A stretch of 64,000 nt of DNA. Origin: Picochlorum sp. SENEW3. Taxonomy: Eukaryota. Location of the stretch: contig CP120460.1 in assembly GCA_034226945.1 (NCBI GenBank), positions 496,001-560,000 of the forward strand. Reading direction: 5' to 3'. This document shows, in pieces, positions 30,582 through 37,647 of the stretch (its first letter is position 1; every line of letters starts with the position of its first letter). Below the pieces are notes generated by a model. The model searched no databases. It saw nothing but the letters and a program-made list of their open reading frames with translations, and had not been told where the DNA came from. The position numbers and the translations under genes were made by a program.

Positions 30582-31161
30582 GTCGCTTTGCTGATATCCT
30601 CTGGTACGAAGTGTTCTTCGTTACGTTGTCTCTCCTTTTGCTACTGATGTATGCAATTCTGTTCACGCAGCCTTGAATATGCGAATTTTTTGATTTTAAA
30701 ATGCGATTGGTGAGACGCAAGGATCAGGATAATCCTGATTCGCTGAGTGTCACGTGTCCAGAATTCTCTCACACACTAGCCAGTCGCGTTTGCGATACAA
30801 CCCCTCCTGGCAACAACATACACGATTAAGACGCGAAGATTATGTTTCTTACGTATTTAATCATTTGCATCTGGGATAACAGTCGCTCTAGTGCACCTTT
30901 TAAAACTCCGAATGGGCGATTTTTTGACAAGATTGGATGAGATTCTGTATTGGTGTCTCTTTTAATGTTCGATTTACAGAGCCAATCCTATTTACGACAT
31001 TTGAATTCCTTTGTTTCCGTGACACACGCACAGGGGATACAGAGCAAAACCCTCAAAACAAATCTATAGAAAGTATGGAGCACTTCTCTTGGCTTCATTC
31101 TCGAAGCAGGTGGATGTATAGAGTCGAGTAACAAAATACAACGTATTTTGTTTCGCTGGCC

Positions 31162-32673
31162 ATGGTTTTGCTGGTCTCTTTCTTCTCCTGTATCGGCGCA
31201 TTTCTCTTTGGATATGATTTGGGTTTGATTGCAGGGGCATTGCCTCTGATTCGAGATGATTTGAATGTGTCGGAGGTGGTGGAGGAGTTGATTGTTTCCA
31301 TGGCAAAGTTGGGTGCTGTTGTGGGGACCCTTATTGGCGCAACTGTGATGAAATTGCACGGTCGGCGTCCAGCTCTCATCTGGGATGTTGTATTTTTTCT
31401 GGTAGGCCCTTTTCTGATGGTTGTGCATCCATCGGGGGTCGCGCTGTTGGTGGTGGGAAGATTTGTAATTGGCCTTGGGATAGGTGTTTCCGCAGGAGTC
31501 TCACCAGCGTATTTGGGTGAAATTTCTCCCAATGCATATCGAGGAAGAATTGTGGGGTTGTATGAATTTATGTTGTGTTTTGGAATGCTTAGTGCTGCAC
31601 TCGTGAATGGACTGATTGACACATATGTTGATTCAAGAACATCATGGAGGCTAATGGTAGGATTGCCAATGGTGCCTGCTTTATTTATGGGTATTTTTGT
31701 GTGGTGGATTCCAGAGTCTCCTAGATGGCTTGTTTCTCAAGGACGATTGGATGAGGCGCTGCGGGTGATGCATAAAGTGCATACATCATCAACACTTCCA
31801 CAAGGTGAGCATAGTTCTACTGCACAGGTGGAGGCTGAGTTGCTCGACTTGTGGAGCTCTGTGGAGAAGGAACGGAGCGAACAGATTGATTCAAATATAG
31901 AAATGAATTCAATGGAAGGTACATTGGAGAATGACGCACTTCCTTTATTACCTGATGGGAGCAACGATAAGAGCAGTGCCGGTAACAGCACAAAGAGAAT
32001 GGCTTCCATATCACCGTCCTATTTCAGCATTTTTACTGATGTGTACAAGTTGGGGTTCAGTGATGAGAGACGAGCGTATTTTTTTGTTCTAGCAATTGCA
32101 TTTTTCAATCAAGCCTGTGCATCAACAGCCATCATAAATTATGCACCAACAGTGTTGGAGGAGAAGAAAGGTATTGAGAGCCTAGCGCAGGCGTCTTTTG
32201 CTGCCTCCGCGACAGGCGTTGCAAAGTTACTAGGTGCAATAGTTTCCATTTCTCTTGTTGATAGATTAGGGAGAAAGCCCTTGTTAGTCCTGGGATCTAT
32301 TGCAAGTTCTGCTAGTTTATTGCTTCTCAGTGTTGGTGACGCACTCTCATCTGTTCCACTCATGGTGACCTCCATGGGTGTATTCATTTTTTTCTTTTCA
32401 TTGTCGTGGGGTGCAATTTTCTGGATAATATTATCCGAAGTATTTTCGATGAAGAATAAATCAGGTGCAGTTGCAACTTGTACAGCAGCACTGTTTTTGT
32501 TTGGTAGTGCTGCAGATGCTTTGTTCTTGACAATTCGAAGTGCCATTGGATTTGGGTCGTTTATTGTGTATGCATTCGTTTCTTTGTCAGGAGGTGTATT
32601 TGTATATTTTTGCCTGCCGGAGACAAAAGGAAAGTCTCTCAAAGAGGTGCAACAGTCATTGAGAATTTCATAG
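31162..32673 (+). CDS. MFS sugar/inositol porter; exact start uncertain
   Basis: FLFGYDLG, GRRPA, PESPRWL, DRLGRKP and LPETKGKSL; about 12 hydrophobic segments. Confidence 0.9.
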   Translation: MVLLVSFFSCIGAFLFGYDLGLIAGALPLIRDDLNVSEVVEELIVSMAKLGAVVGTLIGATVMKLHGRRPALIWDVVFFLVGPFLMVVHPSGVALLVVGRFVIGLGIGVSAGVSPAYLGEISPNAYRGRIVGLYEFMLCFGMLSAALVNGLIDTYVDSRTSWRLMVGLPMVPALFMGIFVWWIPESPRWLVSQGRLDEALRVMHKVHTSSTLPQGEHSSTAQVEAELLDLWSSVEKERSEQIDSNIEMNSMEGTLENDALPLLPDGSNDKSSAGNSTKRMASISPSYFSIFTDVYKLGFSDERRAYFFVLAIAFFNQACASTAIINYAPTVLEEKKGIESLAQASFAASATGVAKLLGAIVSISLVDRLGRKPLLVLGSIASSASLLLLSVGDALSSVPLMVTSMGVFIFFFSLSWGAIFWIILSEVFSMKNKSGAVATCTAALFLFGSAADALFLTIRSAIGFGSFIVYAFVSLSGGVFVYFCLPETKGKSLKEVQQSLRIS

Positions 32674-32758: not shown

Positions 32759-35365
32759 TTATCCAATAATATTTAGAGGATTTGGTGGTTGGGCACCTTG
32801 GGCTTGAGGAACAATAGGAAGCTCCACTGGTGCAGGTGCTGGTTCTGTTGTTGTAAATGGCTTCACAGCTGTCTGAGGTGGTGTCTCAATCTTTGGCAGC
32901 TCCACTGGTGCGGCAGCTCGAGGCACCTCTTGTTTTGATGGCGCAATGCCCAATTGCACAGAGACACCTGCTGGTTTTGTGCTAGGGACATCAGCAGTGT
33001 TCTGAGGTTCTACAATAGCACTTGATATTGGTGGATCCGCCTGTGGCGCTACATCATTTGTGATCTCAGGCACAATAGAGACCACTTGCTCTGGGGATGG
33101 CGCCACAGCAGCTGTTTGTTCCTCAACAGCACCCTCGGTCTCATTGATTGGCTGCAGTTCCTCCGGATTGACGACAGGGGGGACACTGATGACGTCAATT
33201 GGATCATTTCTCACATCGCATTTCTTTTGGCACTGAACTTCCGTGATATCCAGATCTCCAATCTGATCAAAGGTCACATTAGCAGTCGGATAGTATGTGT
33301 AGGATGCACTGGACCCAGGGTCACTGATTGGACATGCGACCACCACTGAATCCACATCCTTGGACCATGTCATTCCACATCCACTCTCCAAGTACCCAAA
33401 TGGTACACAATTCATGCTTGAAGATAATTCAACACACGATGCACTTTTTAGGAAATTGGCTGATTCTCCCACTTTTGTTGGAAGAGCACACCCAACAATT
33501 GCAGCAATAAGTATGGCAACAAGAACCACACCAGAACCTATTTGAATTGATAGCCATTTGGTTCGCTTCTCATTTGCACTTGTTTGGACCTTTGGGAATA
33601 AGATCACAATATATGCAAGGCAGACACCACTGATTGCTCCACCAATTGAAAACCAGACATCAACAAGAGGGAATAGACTCAGCACAATCAAACCTCCGAG
33701 CACAATCAGAAGAATTAGAGTAACAAGGTACCATTCTTTCAAGTTTAGGAGCTTTCGCCTGGGCCATTCCAGAGTTTGGCTGGCAACAATGACACCCAAT
33801 AAACTCAAGATTCCAGAGAATGCTCCACATGCTATGTAATCAGCATTGAGGTTCGCTGAGGCAAGCGATCCAACGAGAGAGGACAAAAGGAACAGTGCCG
33901 CAACGGTTGCCTGAGGGAAAGGCATGGCAGTTCTAGCATACGCCCCAAATACCCACAGAAAGAGAAGGCACAGAGCAAGGTGAATGAGACCTGCTGGCAG
34001 GAAAATCGATGATATCAATCTCCACCATTCATTCCCAGGTGAATTCATCAAAGGCAATACCAATGCTCCAGATTGGACGAGCCCGTCCCTTGTGGCTCCA
34101 TACCAGGGGTTTTCAGACATTGGAGCCATTTCCCAGTTGGAAAATGAAAGTGAGAGGATGAACATGGCAACATAGACTATTGTCATGAGTGTCAGGAATC
34201 CAATACTGTACCATTCAACTGGAGCAAGCTTTTTCTTGGACTTTTGTGGGGATCCTCCTCTTGAAGATCTAGACCGTGATATTTGTCTCGAGCTTCTTGG
34301 GGATGCAATGCCTCTGCGGACATACCAGGGTGCATTCCCTGCTTCCAAAGTACCTGGTGTAGCGTTCACATCGATTCTTCCAGGCCTTACCTTGCTTCCA
34401 TTTGTATACGTCCATCCATTGCTGTTCATCCTTGAAGGTGGAGTTCTGGCTGGACCTGCTGCACCTGGGGTTGAGACATACTGGGTATCCTTTCCCTGAA
34501 AATCATATCTATTCGTCTCCTCTGTCAGAATAAATGATCCAGAGGGATCCTACGCAATACAATAAGTAGTATCAATATTCATGTGATATATATAAATAAA
34601 CATCGCAATTGTAAGTACATACCATCATCCATGGTGCATTCTTTCTTGCCCAAGCAGTGATTGCCATCATGAGCTCCGAATTAGGCGTCATTGATATAGG
34701 AACTCGCAATGTTTTATTCGTGACAGGACATCTCTTCTGTCCTTTTGCAAGTCTTTTCTCCAGCGCACATCTATCGCACGTTGTCCCAGTCGCAAGGATC
34801 ACAGGATCTTTCATGACTCGGCCAGAGATGGGGCAGATAAACCTTGGTGGAGCCTTTGCCTCGATAGCCATACGATCAAGTTCCCTGATAGGTGTACAAC
34901 CTTTTCTAGGACTAGGAGTTTTCCGGTCCACTTTTGCTGTGACAGTTTGTCCAGAGGTCGAACTACCACCCCTCCTTGAGGATCGTGGGGTCAAGCGCCG
35001 AGGAGACATTTGCCCATACTTCCCTGCTGGAAGAACCACAAATTGACCACTTTCAGGGCCTTTAACATCCATGGATCCTCGCATGGATGGAGAAGAAACG
35101 AAAGAATCTAGATGACCTGCTTTTATACTTTGGCTAGCTTCACTTGCTAACGTACTACTGCTCGTCCGTTGCAGGTTTTCCACCTGCAGGGGCTGCGGCC
35201 TTTTCTCCATTCCTGTGCCATCTGCCCAAAGAAATACACCAAAAAATATTAAAAACAATAAATGTGCAGAAGCTTGTGTAACTCGGACATACCTGTATTC
35301 GTAGACTTTGGGGAAAGTTTCTCTGACTTTGTCCGCAAGATTCCTGCACCAATCATCGGAGCCAT
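32759..35365 (-). CDS. U-box domain plus inactive rhomboid-like membrane protein
   Basis: Exons 35365-35293, 35221-34623 and 34549-32759 are GT-AG and in phase. U-box PPRFICPISGRVMKDPVILATGTTCDR...CPVT...PN. Rhomboid region ENPWYG, EWWRLISSIFL.AGLIHL. Confidence 0.8.
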
Positions 35366-35744
35366 ATCAGCATATCAACCGACCAAAGATCAAAAATTTA
35401 TATTATAATATCTATATTTAATGCCATACCAGTGCTCTGATCCACAGGAGCAACTTGTGGAAAAGTTGTTTCCATCTTGCCGTTAAGATCTGGTTACTGC
35501 ACTGAGAGGAGAGGTCCACGCGTATAGTGCGAAATAACCAACTAGATGGATCCCAATCAAATTGAATATATCAATAATATTTTGTGACCTGAAACGAGGA
35601 AAGATAATGCACACATGGGTCCACTGGCGACGTTCATGCGCATAACCGACATGTTTTGGGCGCCACCGGACCATCGCGCGATGGTGCGCCGTGATGACTC
35701 ATCAGAAAACCGGTCATCAAGTCCCATTCTTTCTTCTTTACATC

Positions 35745-37331
35745 TTAGATACTATCAATTGGTACATCTTCTTCTTCTCTAGTCTCCAGATTTTTCACTC
35801 GAACAAGTCCCTTCTCCCACTCGTCTGGAGCAACCAACACGAGTCGAGATGCGCCACAACGCTCAGCCTGCTTGAAAGCCCACTTCATCTTCTTTCCTGA
35901 ATCCAAGACAAGATCCACAGTCTTATTGTTGGCTCTCAACTTTGAAGCAATACTACACGCAGCTGGATACAGCTCTTTATCCATCGCGATGACGAGGTCA
36001 TCAACAGAATGACTCGGTGTTGGCAACAAGCCCTTGTCAGACAAGAGCTCCATAATCACTGCATCACCAAACCCAAACCCAACACACGGCTGATCCTCGC
36101 CTCCAAACGTCCCGAGAAGCTTATCATATCTCCCTCCTCCACAAATTGCACGCAATTTGCCCTCTCTATCAAAACCTTCAAACACCACTCCTGTATAATA
36201 TGCCAATCCACGAACCACGCTGGCATCAAACACCAGGTACTCATCATACCCATAGGCTGCCGCAAGATCAAACAATCGCTTGAGATCCTTCACAGCATCA
36301 TTATCCTCTCCTATTAAACTCTCTAAATCACCTACATCTTTCACATTCAATGCGGAGAGAATCTTCTCGGCAGTATCATTCGAGAGCCCCAACTGCAACA
36401 AACCATCAACCACCTTTTCCCTTGGTAATTTATCCAATTTATCCACCAAGATACACACAGGACCAAACGTTTCACTATCTAAACCACAGGACTCTAACAC
36501 TTGCTGCAATACTTTTCTACTAGACACTTTAATCCCCACATCAGCAGATGTCAAGCCAACACCTTTGAAGAATTGGGTGATGGCAGCCAACAATTCTGCC
36601 TCTGCCTCAACTCCCTCAACCCCAATAATGTCCATATTCCACTGATAATGCTCCCGCCTCCTACCCCGTGTCGCACGCTCATATCTCCAGCATTGCCCAA
36701 TCGCGTACCATTTCGCAGGCAATGCCAACCCCTTGCCCTTTTGCAAAGCCAACCGAGCCAATGATGGTGTCAGTTCTGGGCGCAAACTCACCCGTCTCCC
36801 ACCTTTATCTTCAAAATTATACAACTGATCCGTAATCTCCTCACCAGCCTTACGAACAAAGAGTTCTTCACTCTCCAGAACAGGAAAATCTATATGCTCA
36901 AATCCAAATCCTGTGGCTACACGATCAAACTCCCCAAACAGCCATTTTTGCATCCTCTTCTCCTCTGGGGGAAAATCGCGAGTCCCCCTCGGAGGATTTG
37001 TATCAATCATCTGTTTATGCTTCTTCCCCTTGCCACCTCCAATAGAACTGCTTCCCGCCTTGCGATCCGTCGACGTGGGAGAATCTGTGGCAGCACAGAC
37101 GACCCTGCTCGACTGGGACACCAATGTACGTCTCGATAACCCGATTGATCGATTTCCACGACGATCAAAATGCCTATAATGCACTCGGGAGTATGAATGC
37201 TGCATTGACAAGCAACCATTCGTGGCTGTGGACCACAGTCGATAGCAGTGGGTGGTGGGAACACCTTTGGCGAAGAGTCGGTTCATCATGCCACTTTTAG
37301 ATGTCATTTGCGCCTTTCCTGATACATTCAT
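35745..37331 (-). CDS. Histidyl-tRNA synthetase, organellar; start uncertain
   Basis: PPRGTRDF, LRPELTPS, RYER...GRRREHYQ, VRGLAYYTG and GGGRYD. Confidence 0.93.
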   Translation of the reverse strand: MNVSGKAQMTSKSGMMNRLFAKGVPTTHCYRLWSTATNGCLSMQHSYSRVHYRHFDRRGNRSIGLSRRTLVSQSSRVVCAATDSPTSTDRKAGSSSIGGGKGKKHKQMIDTNPPRGTRDFPPEEKRMQKWLFGEFDRVATGFGFEHIDFPVLESEELFVRKAGEEITDQLYNFEDKGGRRVSLRPELTPSLARLALQKGKGLALPAKWYAIGQCWRYERATRGRRREHYQWNMDIIGVEGVEAEAELLAAITQFFKGVGLTSADVGIKVSSRKVLQQVLESCGLDSETFGPVCILVDKLDKLPREKVVDGLLQLGLSNDTAEKILSALNVKDVGDLESLIGEDNDAVKDLKRLFDLAAAYGYDEYLVFDASVVRGLAYYTGVVFEGFDREGKLRAICGGGRYDKLLGTFGGEDQPCVGFGFGDAVIMELLSDKGLLPTPSHSVDDLVIAMDKELYPAACSIASKLRANNKTVDLVLDSGKKMKWAFKQAERCGASRLVLVAPDEWEKGLVRVKNLETREEEDVPIDSI

Positions 37332-37647
37332 TTCAGTATTCGACAACTTTTTGGGTTACAGTGGGTTGAAATGTGCATGAATTTGAGGCCAGACTACTGG
37401 GGCCAAGTTCCTTGGATTGGTATCCCATCAAATAGATTCTTGGATGGGAAGATGAGTATTTTCAAGACGACATCCCTGGGCATGAGGATTTTAATTGCAG
37501 ATACCCCTCGCTTGTCGGTAATTGTATTAATTTTATAGTAAGACTTACTATATTTAGATGACCATCTGCGAATGATTGGGTATAGATAGAAATCTGGTTG
37601 CAAGGTGGTTGGGTACTGAGCAACCAACAGACGACCCTTCTCTCGCG

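Follow-up and report, generated by a model that had tools for sequence, protein, structure and literature searches.

A conserved green-algal gene joins a U-box to a rhomboid domain that appears to have lost its catalytic dyad

Rhomboid pseudoproteases such as the Derlins, Dsc2, UBAC2, and the iRhoms are thought to pass membrane proteins to ubiquitin ligases, and UBAC2 is known to pair with gp78 and Derlin with Hrd1. To our knowledge, the pseudoprotease and the ligase have been separate proteins in every case studied and, because recognition and ligase lie on separate proteins, it is hard to define who recognizes what. A single-chain link to ubiquitin is found in RHBDL4 (RHBDD1), which carries a ubiquitin-interacting motif (UIM). 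PMC11513148 describes the rhomboid pseudoprotease subunit of the Dsc E3 ubiquitin ligase complex, Dsc2, as assessing transmembrane domains, and PMC9437926 presents RHBDL4 as an endoplasmic reticulum (ER) rhomboid protease tied to the ubiquitin system within one chain. Here we describe a gene of Picochlorum sp. SENEW3 in which a U-box domain and a rhomboid domain are encoded together. It lies within a stretch of 64,000 nucleotides (contig CP120460.1, positions 496,001 to 560,000), referred to below as the window, and was brought to attention by a sequence-only reading that proposed a U-box E3 ligase fused to a catalytically dead rhomboid.

Picochlorum is a trebouxiophyte green alga; the genome around the locus is compact, and the gene is on the minus strand of the window. 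An exhaustive word search identified a 100% identical public protein, P0001 (828 amino acids [aa]), which is listed as 'RHOMBOID-like protein 6 [Picochlorum sp. SENEW3]' and carries precomputed matches to the Pfam profiles PF01694 and PF04564. The U-box profile (PF04564) matched the exon over positions 1-71 of its 73 (E 1.3e-15; 57.7 bits, cut-off 21.4) and P0001 residues 156-227 with an E value of 1.3e-14. The Rhomboid profile (PF01694) matched over positions 2-141 of its 143 (E 9.9e-16; 58.7 bits, cut-off 22.6), and in P0001 its match covers residues 405-548. Both matches are far beyond chance.

Comparison of the DNA with P0001 divides the coding sequence into four exons and three GT..AG introns of 86, 71, and 73 nt (Table 1). 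The U-box and the membrane region meet at intron 3, whose GT occupies 34622-34621 and whose AG occupies 34551-34550 on the minus strand. Exon 3 closes on a whole codon (CCA TGG ATG ATG, last base 34623), exon 4 opens with GAT at 34549, and the resulting phase 0 junction reads NAPWMM/DPSGSF, identically in P0001. The sequence-only reading had joined its U-box and membrane open reading frames in phase through this same 73-nt intron, and in that respect it was exact in both the DNA and P0001. Its boundary at 35365 did not hold, as the ATG there falls within intron 1 of the public model; the coding sequence begins upstream at 35475 and contains two further introns.

Table 1. Coordinates of the U-box-rhomboid gene and its encoded features within the window
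Feature	Positions	Strand	Evidence
Coding exon 1, Met1 to first base of Gly16	35430..35475	minus	sequence vs P0001; X3 joint to exon 2
Intron 1, 86 nt, GT..AG	35344..35429	minus	sequence, P0001, X3 skip of 86 with 50-letter side
Coding exon 2, rest of Gly16, Ile17-Thr32, first base of Asp33	35293..35343	minus	sequence, P0001, X3 contig
Intron 2, 71 nt, GT..AG, phase 1	35222..35292	minus	sequence, P0001, X3 skip of 71, side 50
Coding exon 3, residues 33-232: Ser/Arg-rich N-terminal region and U-box	34623..35221	minus	sequence, Pfam, P0001
U-box domain, P0001 residues 156-227	34638..34853	minus	Pfam PF04564, AtPUB14 1t1h match
Intron 3, 73 nt, GT..AG, phase 0	34550..34622	minus	sequence, P0001, X3 skip of 73, one contig, side 22
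Coding exon 4 and stop codon, residues 233-828: linker (predicted cytosolic), 7-helix rhomboid, ectodomain, tail	32759..34549	minus	sequence, P0001
Seven predicted transmembrane helices (P0001 ~345-587): 6-helix rhomboid core and seventh	33485..34213	minus	AlphaFold, VIA-align, Pfam
Phe476 codon TTC at catalytic-Ser position	33818..33820	minus	MAFFT and hmmalign alignments
Ser533 codon TCA at catalytic-His position	33647..33649	minus	MAFFT and hmmalign alignments
Six-cysteine ectodomain after helix 7 (C604, C613, C623, C638, C672, C676) and N-x-T sequon	33176..33478	minus	alignments, AlphaFold
Pro/Ala/Glu-rich low-complexity C-terminal tail (residues ~691-828)	32762..33175	minus	sequence

Four sequencing runs (X1, X2, X3, and X7) were compared with the locus, and splice joints were seen in X3 only. 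The label of X3 as RNA is a guess, and its source is a relative about 97% identical to the locus (47 differing letters in 1635). Its contigs skip exactly the three introns, with joints at 35342->35429 (cut +1), 35221->35293, and 34548->34622 (cut +1), and the skipped ends read CT..AC on the plus strand, equivalent to GT..AG on the gene strand. The contig sides measure 50 letters at introns 1 and 2 and 22 letters at intron 3, which a single contig crosses. X1 and X2 were DNA-like and showed no joints, and X7, a true RNA library, covers 33042-33519 only, away from the junction. At the 34623/34549 junction, for which an RNA check had been suggested, one spliced X3 contig crosses with a side of 22 letters, and unspliced pieces are present as well.

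Homologous proteins are conserved across the junction. The residues flanking it (A228, P229, and W230 on one side and G236 on the other) are invariant in 15/15 aligned homologues. Of 22 close homologues, 15 have precomputed matches to both domains and the other 7 to Rhomboid only, and U-box plus Rhomboid were found in 16 of the 47 more distant representatives scanned with Pfam. P0054, one of these 16, is a Trinity transcript. The junction in the DNA, the identical public protein, the spliced contig, and the homologues with both domains confirm that the U-box and the rhomboid domain behind it are encoded by a single gene.

To set the register of the catalytic sites, we used MAFFT and hmmalign multiple alignments that included intermediate family members. 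The motifs to which the sequence-only reading had pointed (WR, here within EWWRL, together with CGAFSG and VDVWFSIGG) are all present. At the serine site, the VGASGG of active rhomboids corresponds to CGAFSG here, with CGASAG, VGSSAG, and AGASGG in intermediates, so that Phe476 occupies the position of the catalytic Ser; the adjacent Ser477 is Ala in the Nannochloris clade. At the histidine site in helix 6, the active DNFAHLGG reads DVWFSIGG, with Ser533 in place of the His. Helix 2 is altered as well, since the active HAGxxHxxxN reads PAGLIHLALC: the first His has become Pro, the second is kept (although it is Gln in most of its clade), and the Asn has become Cys. We take these helix-2 residues to be H145, H150, and N154 of GlpG. 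The 15 diverse fused members compared have, without exception, W408 and R409 of the WR motif and G540 of helix 6. The alignments thus indicate that the Ser-His dyad has been lost, as the sequence-only reading had held, that the WR motif has been retained, and that the protein departs from active rhomboid proteases (MEROPS S54) at the Ser, at the His, and across the helix-2 H...H...N set.

The fold of the membrane region was predicted with an AlphaFold model (mb6f82c5ac72a) of P0001 residues 327-687 built from a 72-row alignment. The model reached a mean predicted local distance difference test (pLDDT) score of 92.6 and a predicted template modeling (pTM) score of 0.90, and consists of seven long helices and, after them, a small alpha/beta domain. 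The four Foldseek matches at E ≤0.001 were without exception to iRhom1/2 chains (best E 7.6e-8), and GlpG came next. With VIA-align, iRhom2 (8snl_B; Z 25.1, 262 residues aligned, root-mean-square deviation 3.3) and iRhom1 (9xy4_A; Z 25.1, 235 residues) were followed by several GlpG entries (Z 14.9-16.1, 169-177 residues), Derlin-1 (7czb_A; Z 10.1, 179 residues), and Der1 (6vjz_C; Z 8.6, 161 residues). The model argues for a 6+1-helix secretase-type rhomboid that is nearer to iRhom than to Derlin. This disfavors the ER-based, Derlin-like framing that had been suggested from the sequence, and ER localization is unsupported.

The likeness to iRhom1 and iRhom2 (RHBDF1/2) lies in the predicted seven-helix secretase-type rhomboid fold without a catalytic dyad, and iRhoms are the best PDB sequence matches (E 0.002) as well as the best structural ones. 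They differ from the Picochlorum protein in several ways. Loop 1 is only about 40 residues long here (model residues 43-82), with no large Cys-rich iRhom homology domain, and Pfam gave no match to the iRhom N-terminal domain PF12595 at E values up to 1 or 5. The GPxG signature of iRhoms reads CGAF, and a U-box and a C-terminal ectodomain are present here, whereas iRhoms have no ligase domain. With Derlins, Der1, and Dfm1 the protein appears to have in common an inactive rhomboid fold, the WR motif, and, in helix 6, a G-x-x-x-G of small residues, the two motifs being important in Dfm1. The Derlins are nevertheless much further away structurally, with Derlin-1 and Der1 both well below GlpG at about 16, there was no Pfam match to DER1 (PF04511) at E ≤1, and Derlins have neither the seventh helix and ectodomain nor a fused ligase.

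Among the systems that combine a rhomboid with the ubiquitin machinery, Dsc2 with Tul1/Dsc1 and UBAC2 with gp78 are alike in pairing a rhomboid pseudoprotease with an E3 ligase to select membrane proteins by their transmembrane segments. There, a RING-type ligase and a pseudoprotease with a UBA domain are separate chains. The algal protein has a U-box in the same polypeptide as the rhomboid, and none of the Pfam matches to P0001 at E ≤5 was to a UBA family. RHBDL4 differs in being an active protease that reads ubiquitin on its substrates, while in the algal protein the dyad appears to be lost and the additional domain is predicted to write ubiquitin. The U-box itself is of the plant U-box (PUB) type (1t1h, 7xed), although in PUB proteins its partners are armadillo (ARM) repeats or kinase domains rather than a rhomboid.

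The closest solved U-boxes are those of plant PUB14, PUB12, and PUB13 (E 7e-13 to 2e-11), the best being AtPUB14 (1t1h; E 7.2e-13), and the match to 7xed has an E value of 4e-12. Across 52 family U-boxes, P16, G22, L34, P42, P51, and W67 are invariant. The Ile column of the CPI motif holds Ile in 46 and Val in 2 of 48 filled rows, and the CPI, the DPV, the C-P-x-T loop, and the loop-2 Pro are kept. These patterns show a U-box that is strongly conserved across the family and under constraint.

Between the U-box and the membrane lies a conserved linker of about 110 residues that ends in a Ser/Arg-rich juxtamembrane stretch. This Ser/Arg/Lys-rich stretch before helix 1 (34216-34300, minus strand; P0001 ~311-344) reads RGIASPRSSRQISRSRSSRGGSPQKSKKK, and R311, G312, I313, S315, and S319 within it are invariant in 15 homologues; it looks like a candidate phospho-regulatory region beside the membrane. 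In P0036, P0039, P0049, P0187, and P0191, which belong to non-Picochlorum clades, a UIM-like D-x-A-L-A-I-R-L-Q-E-E-E was spotted by eye between the U-box and helix 1 (alignment A4, columns ~640-680), for which Pfam returned no UIM match at E ≤5. The Picochlorum-clade linker differs at this site, where QG.D.QYV, W.YTNG.K.RPG, and PW...RGI.S are conserved.

A Cys-rich region followed by a Pro/Ala/Glu-rich tail had also been read from the sequence, and both are present after helix 7. The six cysteines of this ectodomain are invariant in 15/15 diverse members and, in an alignment of 50 sequences, at least 90% conserved, and the N-x-T sequon is conserved within the Picochlorum clade. The ectodomain was modeled with a pLDDT above 90 together with the membrane domain and of 76.9 alone. 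A Foldseek search of the PDB found nothing at E ≤0.001 for its fold (best 0.29), and among 48,161 chains compared by VIA-align the highest Z was 3.4, with none at or above 5, which does not imply a novel fold. The tail varies in length and sequence among homologues. The motif GRKLRAG occurs near the C terminus of P0019-P0022, P0024, P0026, P0028, P0032, and P0177 (the Nannochloris-type and neighboring clades) and is missing from P0001, which ends in PLNIIG.

Because the number of helices is odd, the C-terminal domain would lie on the opposite side of the membrane from the N terminus. A U-box requires cytosolic ubiquitin-conjugating (E2) enzymes, and for this reason we infer that the ectodomain and tail are lumenal or extracellular; the six conserved cysteines likewise suggest an oxidizing lumenal or extracellular side. 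Together with the conserved N-x-T sequon and the tail, the disulfide-type domain suggests a far face that could be anywhere in the secretory pathway.

The extent of the family was defined by an exhaustive HMMER search with exon 4, which returned 2776 proteins at E ≤0.001, 20 of them at 1e-30; a word-indexed profile search yielded 32 matches from the close clade only. A purpose-built U-box profile detected the domain in 45 of 183 collected proteins. Named members come from Picochlorum, Nannochloris, Auxenochlorella, Coccomyxa, and Elliptochloris, which we take to be Trebouxiophyceae, from Bryopsis, Ostreobium, and Caulerpa, which we take to be Bryopsidales, and from Tetraselmis. In the ESM Atlas, 100% of the members of a 99-protein cluster carry a U-box and 99% carry Rhomboid, and the commonest phylum of this cluster is Chlorophyta (the phylum being known for 14 members). 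Judged from the named members, the fusion represents a conserved family in core chlorophytes.

Retention of the catalytic residues differs between proteins with and without the U-box. In a table of 170 representatives, Ser is kept in 11 of 39 U-box rows and His in 1 of 38 filled rows (P0040), compared with 99/106 and 87/96 filled, respectively, for the other 106 rows. Nine further relatives of P0040, all with a U-box, keep Ser in 8/9 and His in 0/9; among them is P0184 of Tetraselmis striata, which is 76% identical to P0040. The His position in the closest relatives of P0040 and in other early branches is Asn or Ala. The family contains a graded series, from the full Ser/His/His/Asn set (P0040, Tetraselmis-like) through members with Ser only to those with neither.

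A quick maximum-likelihood tree was built from 162 of the 170 rows and 166 columns, after 8 rows with >25% gaps had been dropped. All 38 U-box rows fall on one side of a branch with a Shimodaira-Hasegawa-like approximate likelihood ratio test (SH-aLRT) value of 99, and 98 canonical rhomboids fall opposite. Another 26 rows on the U-box side have no detected U-box, and the starred branches force at least nine label changes. In 25 of these 26 rows, the rhomboid core starts at or before residue 213, against about 378 in P0001; because of these early starts, the 25 short rows fit gene calls that begin in the large exon. P0144, also among the 26, has a genuinely different architecture. The fusion probably arose once, although the tree does not prove this.

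The architecture had been put forward as one not previously described. That part of the claim which concerns the literature stands, as no paper describing a U-box-rhomboid architecture was found by a full-text search that covered few subscription journals. In PMC2691004 and PMC11371169, U-box and rhomboid are mentioned in separate contexts only. A survey of 30 Chlamydomonas PUBs (PMC4378952) names 13 domains added to the U-box, 'transmembrane motifs' among them, and nowhere uses the word 'rhomboid'. In the databases the situation is different: both Pfam domains are annotated automatically in public, the ESM Atlas cluster groups 99 such proteins, and members have long been present there with automatically assigned names, for instance 'U-box-domain-containing protein' in Coccomyxa C-169 and, in Auxenochlorella, 'U-box domain-containing protein 4'. 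The architecture thus appears to be real and conserved, and apparently undescribed in the literature. The public name 'RHOMBOID-like protein 6' implies an active protease, which would be misleading for P0001 if, as the alignments indicate, it has no dyad.

By analogy with the systems above, we propose that the protein may be a polytopic U-box E3 ligase in which the dead rhomboid binds the transmembrane segments of clients or partners and the tethered U-box ubiquitinates them, a reading that we place slightly on the probable side. The chain would run from a cytosolic N-terminal region with a PUB-type U-box, through the linker and a seven-helix rhomboid without a dyad, to a lumenal or extracellular six-cysteine domain and tail. 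Like Derlins, Dsc2, and iRhoms, the pseudo-rhomboid would hold the transmembrane segments within the membrane plane, and the ectodomain might contribute to recognition on the far side. The tethered U-box would then bring a charged E2 and ubiquitinate cytosolic lysines of the bound protein, and this ubiquitination would set the turnover of that protein. The purpose suggested by the sequence-only reading, client recognition plus ubiquitination for membrane-protein quality control, is a reasonable possibility.

Several observations weigh against this proposal. The rhomboid domain could be a mere membrane anchor, and iRhom, the best structural match, scaffolds a partner protease rather than serving quality control. 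Position 33 in the U-box helix is Trp in 29, Arg in 11, Tyr in 8, and His in 4 of the 52 family U-boxes; Arg is the state of the Picochlorum clade, which accounts for all 11, whereas Trp is found in the solved U-boxes of PUBs. In CHIP, the equivalent residue is His260, which E2 binding requires. Because of the Arg at this helix position in the Picochlorum clade, the predicted ligase may be altered or weak, and E3 activity should not be assumed. RNA support at the key junction is also thin, consisting of one X3 contig with a 22-letter side, and unspliced pieces occur in the same run.

In the most serious alternative, the protein would be receptor-like or a scaffold: the ectodomain and tail would sense a ligand or the cell surface, or would keep a partner in place in the way that iRhom does with ADAM17, the rhomboid would be mainly an anchor or scaffold, and the U-box would ubiquitinate a defined partner or itself rather than survey misfolded proteins. 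The closest solved structures are indeed iRhom1/2 in ADAM17 complexes (Z 25.1; Foldseek E 7.6e-8). The ectodomain cysteines are conserved even in the most distant clades of the 50 members aligned and, for that reason, the ectodomain is as much a hallmark of the family as the U-box. Furthermore, the nearest U-boxes are those of PUB12, PUB13, and PUB14, which act with receptor kinases in plants. On the other hand, the ectodomain has no recognizable fold in the Foldseek and VIA-align searches, so that no ligand-binding role can be assigned to it, and the iRhom-specific features, a long L1 domain and the iRhom N-terminal Pfam domain, are missing. We regard this alternative as rather unlikely.

A second alternative starts from the altered U-box helix and holds that the Picochlorum-clade U-box transfers no ubiquitin and serves instead as a dimerization or E2/ubiquitin-binding module, which would make the protein doubly 'pseudo'. 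The clade-specific Arg at position 33 would fit this, as would position 25, which is Cys in 24/52 family members where PUBs have Tyr. The remainder of the domain is strongly conserved, however, with its six invariant columns and its CPI, DPV, and C-P-x-T elements, and its Pfam score is far over the cut-off, which makes a U-box without transfer activity improbable.

Residual proteolysis through non-canonical residues, for example the invariant Cys473 before the GxSG glycine, is very improbable. Cys473 is invariant in 15 close homologues, and the U-box relative P0040 keeps the Ser, the His, and the helix-2 His and Asn, but the multiple alignments place Cys473 three residues ahead of the Ser site, which itself holds a bulky Phe, Leu, Met, or Trp; the helix-6 site is Ser, Thr, or Ala in the clade, with no His or other general base, and the helix-2 Asn has been replaced by Cys, Val, Ser, or Ala. 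A pairwise phmmer alignment with iRhom had put Cys473 at the Ser position, and it was rejected because its register is shifted by two relative to the multiple alignments. Finally, an erroneous merger of a neighboring U-box gene and a rhomboid-like gene in the gene model, to which the seven close homologues with Rhomboid alone and the unspliced contigs crossing the intron borders could be credited, has a negligible chance of being correct, as the rhomboid-only rows are N-terminally short, the linker is conserved across the exon 3/exon 4 junction, a spliced contig bridges that junction, both domains lie on one Trinity transcript, and the exon-4 frame opens directly after the acceptor AG (the upstream stop overlaps the AG) with no ATG at its start.

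Returning to the proposal of a single-chain ligase with a dead rhomboid as its client-binding part, we also consider a broader reading that joins it to the graded loss of catalytic residues. Secretase-type pseudoproteases would be ubiquitination adaptors. A single chain would read a transmembrane degron, possibly together with an extracellular cue sensed by the ectodomain, and would write cytosolic ubiquitin. The ancestor would have been an active 'cut-and-tag' protease-ligase, and the fusion would have preceded and enabled the decay of proteolysis into client recognition. This is tentative, and as a whole somewhat doubtful. If it were true, the family would be a natural 'Rosetta stone' for iRhom-like pseudoproteases as substrate adaptors in ubiquitination.

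The gene is flanked by a histidyl-tRNA synthetase gene (35748-37355, minus strand; E 3.7e-44) and a major facilitator superfamily (MFS) sugar transporter gene (31132-32670, plus strand; Sugar_tr, E 1e-87), neither of which shows an apparent functional link to it. About 270 bases (35476-35747) separate the stop codon of the histidyl-tRNA synthetase gene from the ATG of the U-box-rhomboid gene. X3 record 23, an 847-letter contig with a depth of 314, extends from beyond 35600 across the splice joints of introns 1 and 2. The untranslated regions of the two genes therefore overlap or abut, and the depth of the contig there is uninformative on expression of the U-box-rhomboid gene. Outside the window, P0077 (1351 aa) combines in one chain a rhomboid, a PA domain, a leishmanolysin-type Peptidase_M8 metalloprotease domain, and a tetraspanin region. 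Its rhomboid dyad reads Gly and Asn and is hence predicted to be dead, and P0077 may be a one-chain counterpart of the ADAM17/iRhom sheddase, which consists of two proteins.

The U-box-rhomboid proteins of green algae would represent a one-chain version of a partnership otherwise known only between separate proteins. Because the natural fusion is conserved, it provides an evolutionary argument that the pairing of pseudoprotease and ligase is functional. The stepwise loss of catalytic residues beside a U-box that stays constrained may offer a clean case of a protease turning into a recognition module. As a single-chain and genetically simple system in transformable microalgae, the family could allow recognition of transmembrane segments to be linked directly to ubiquitination.

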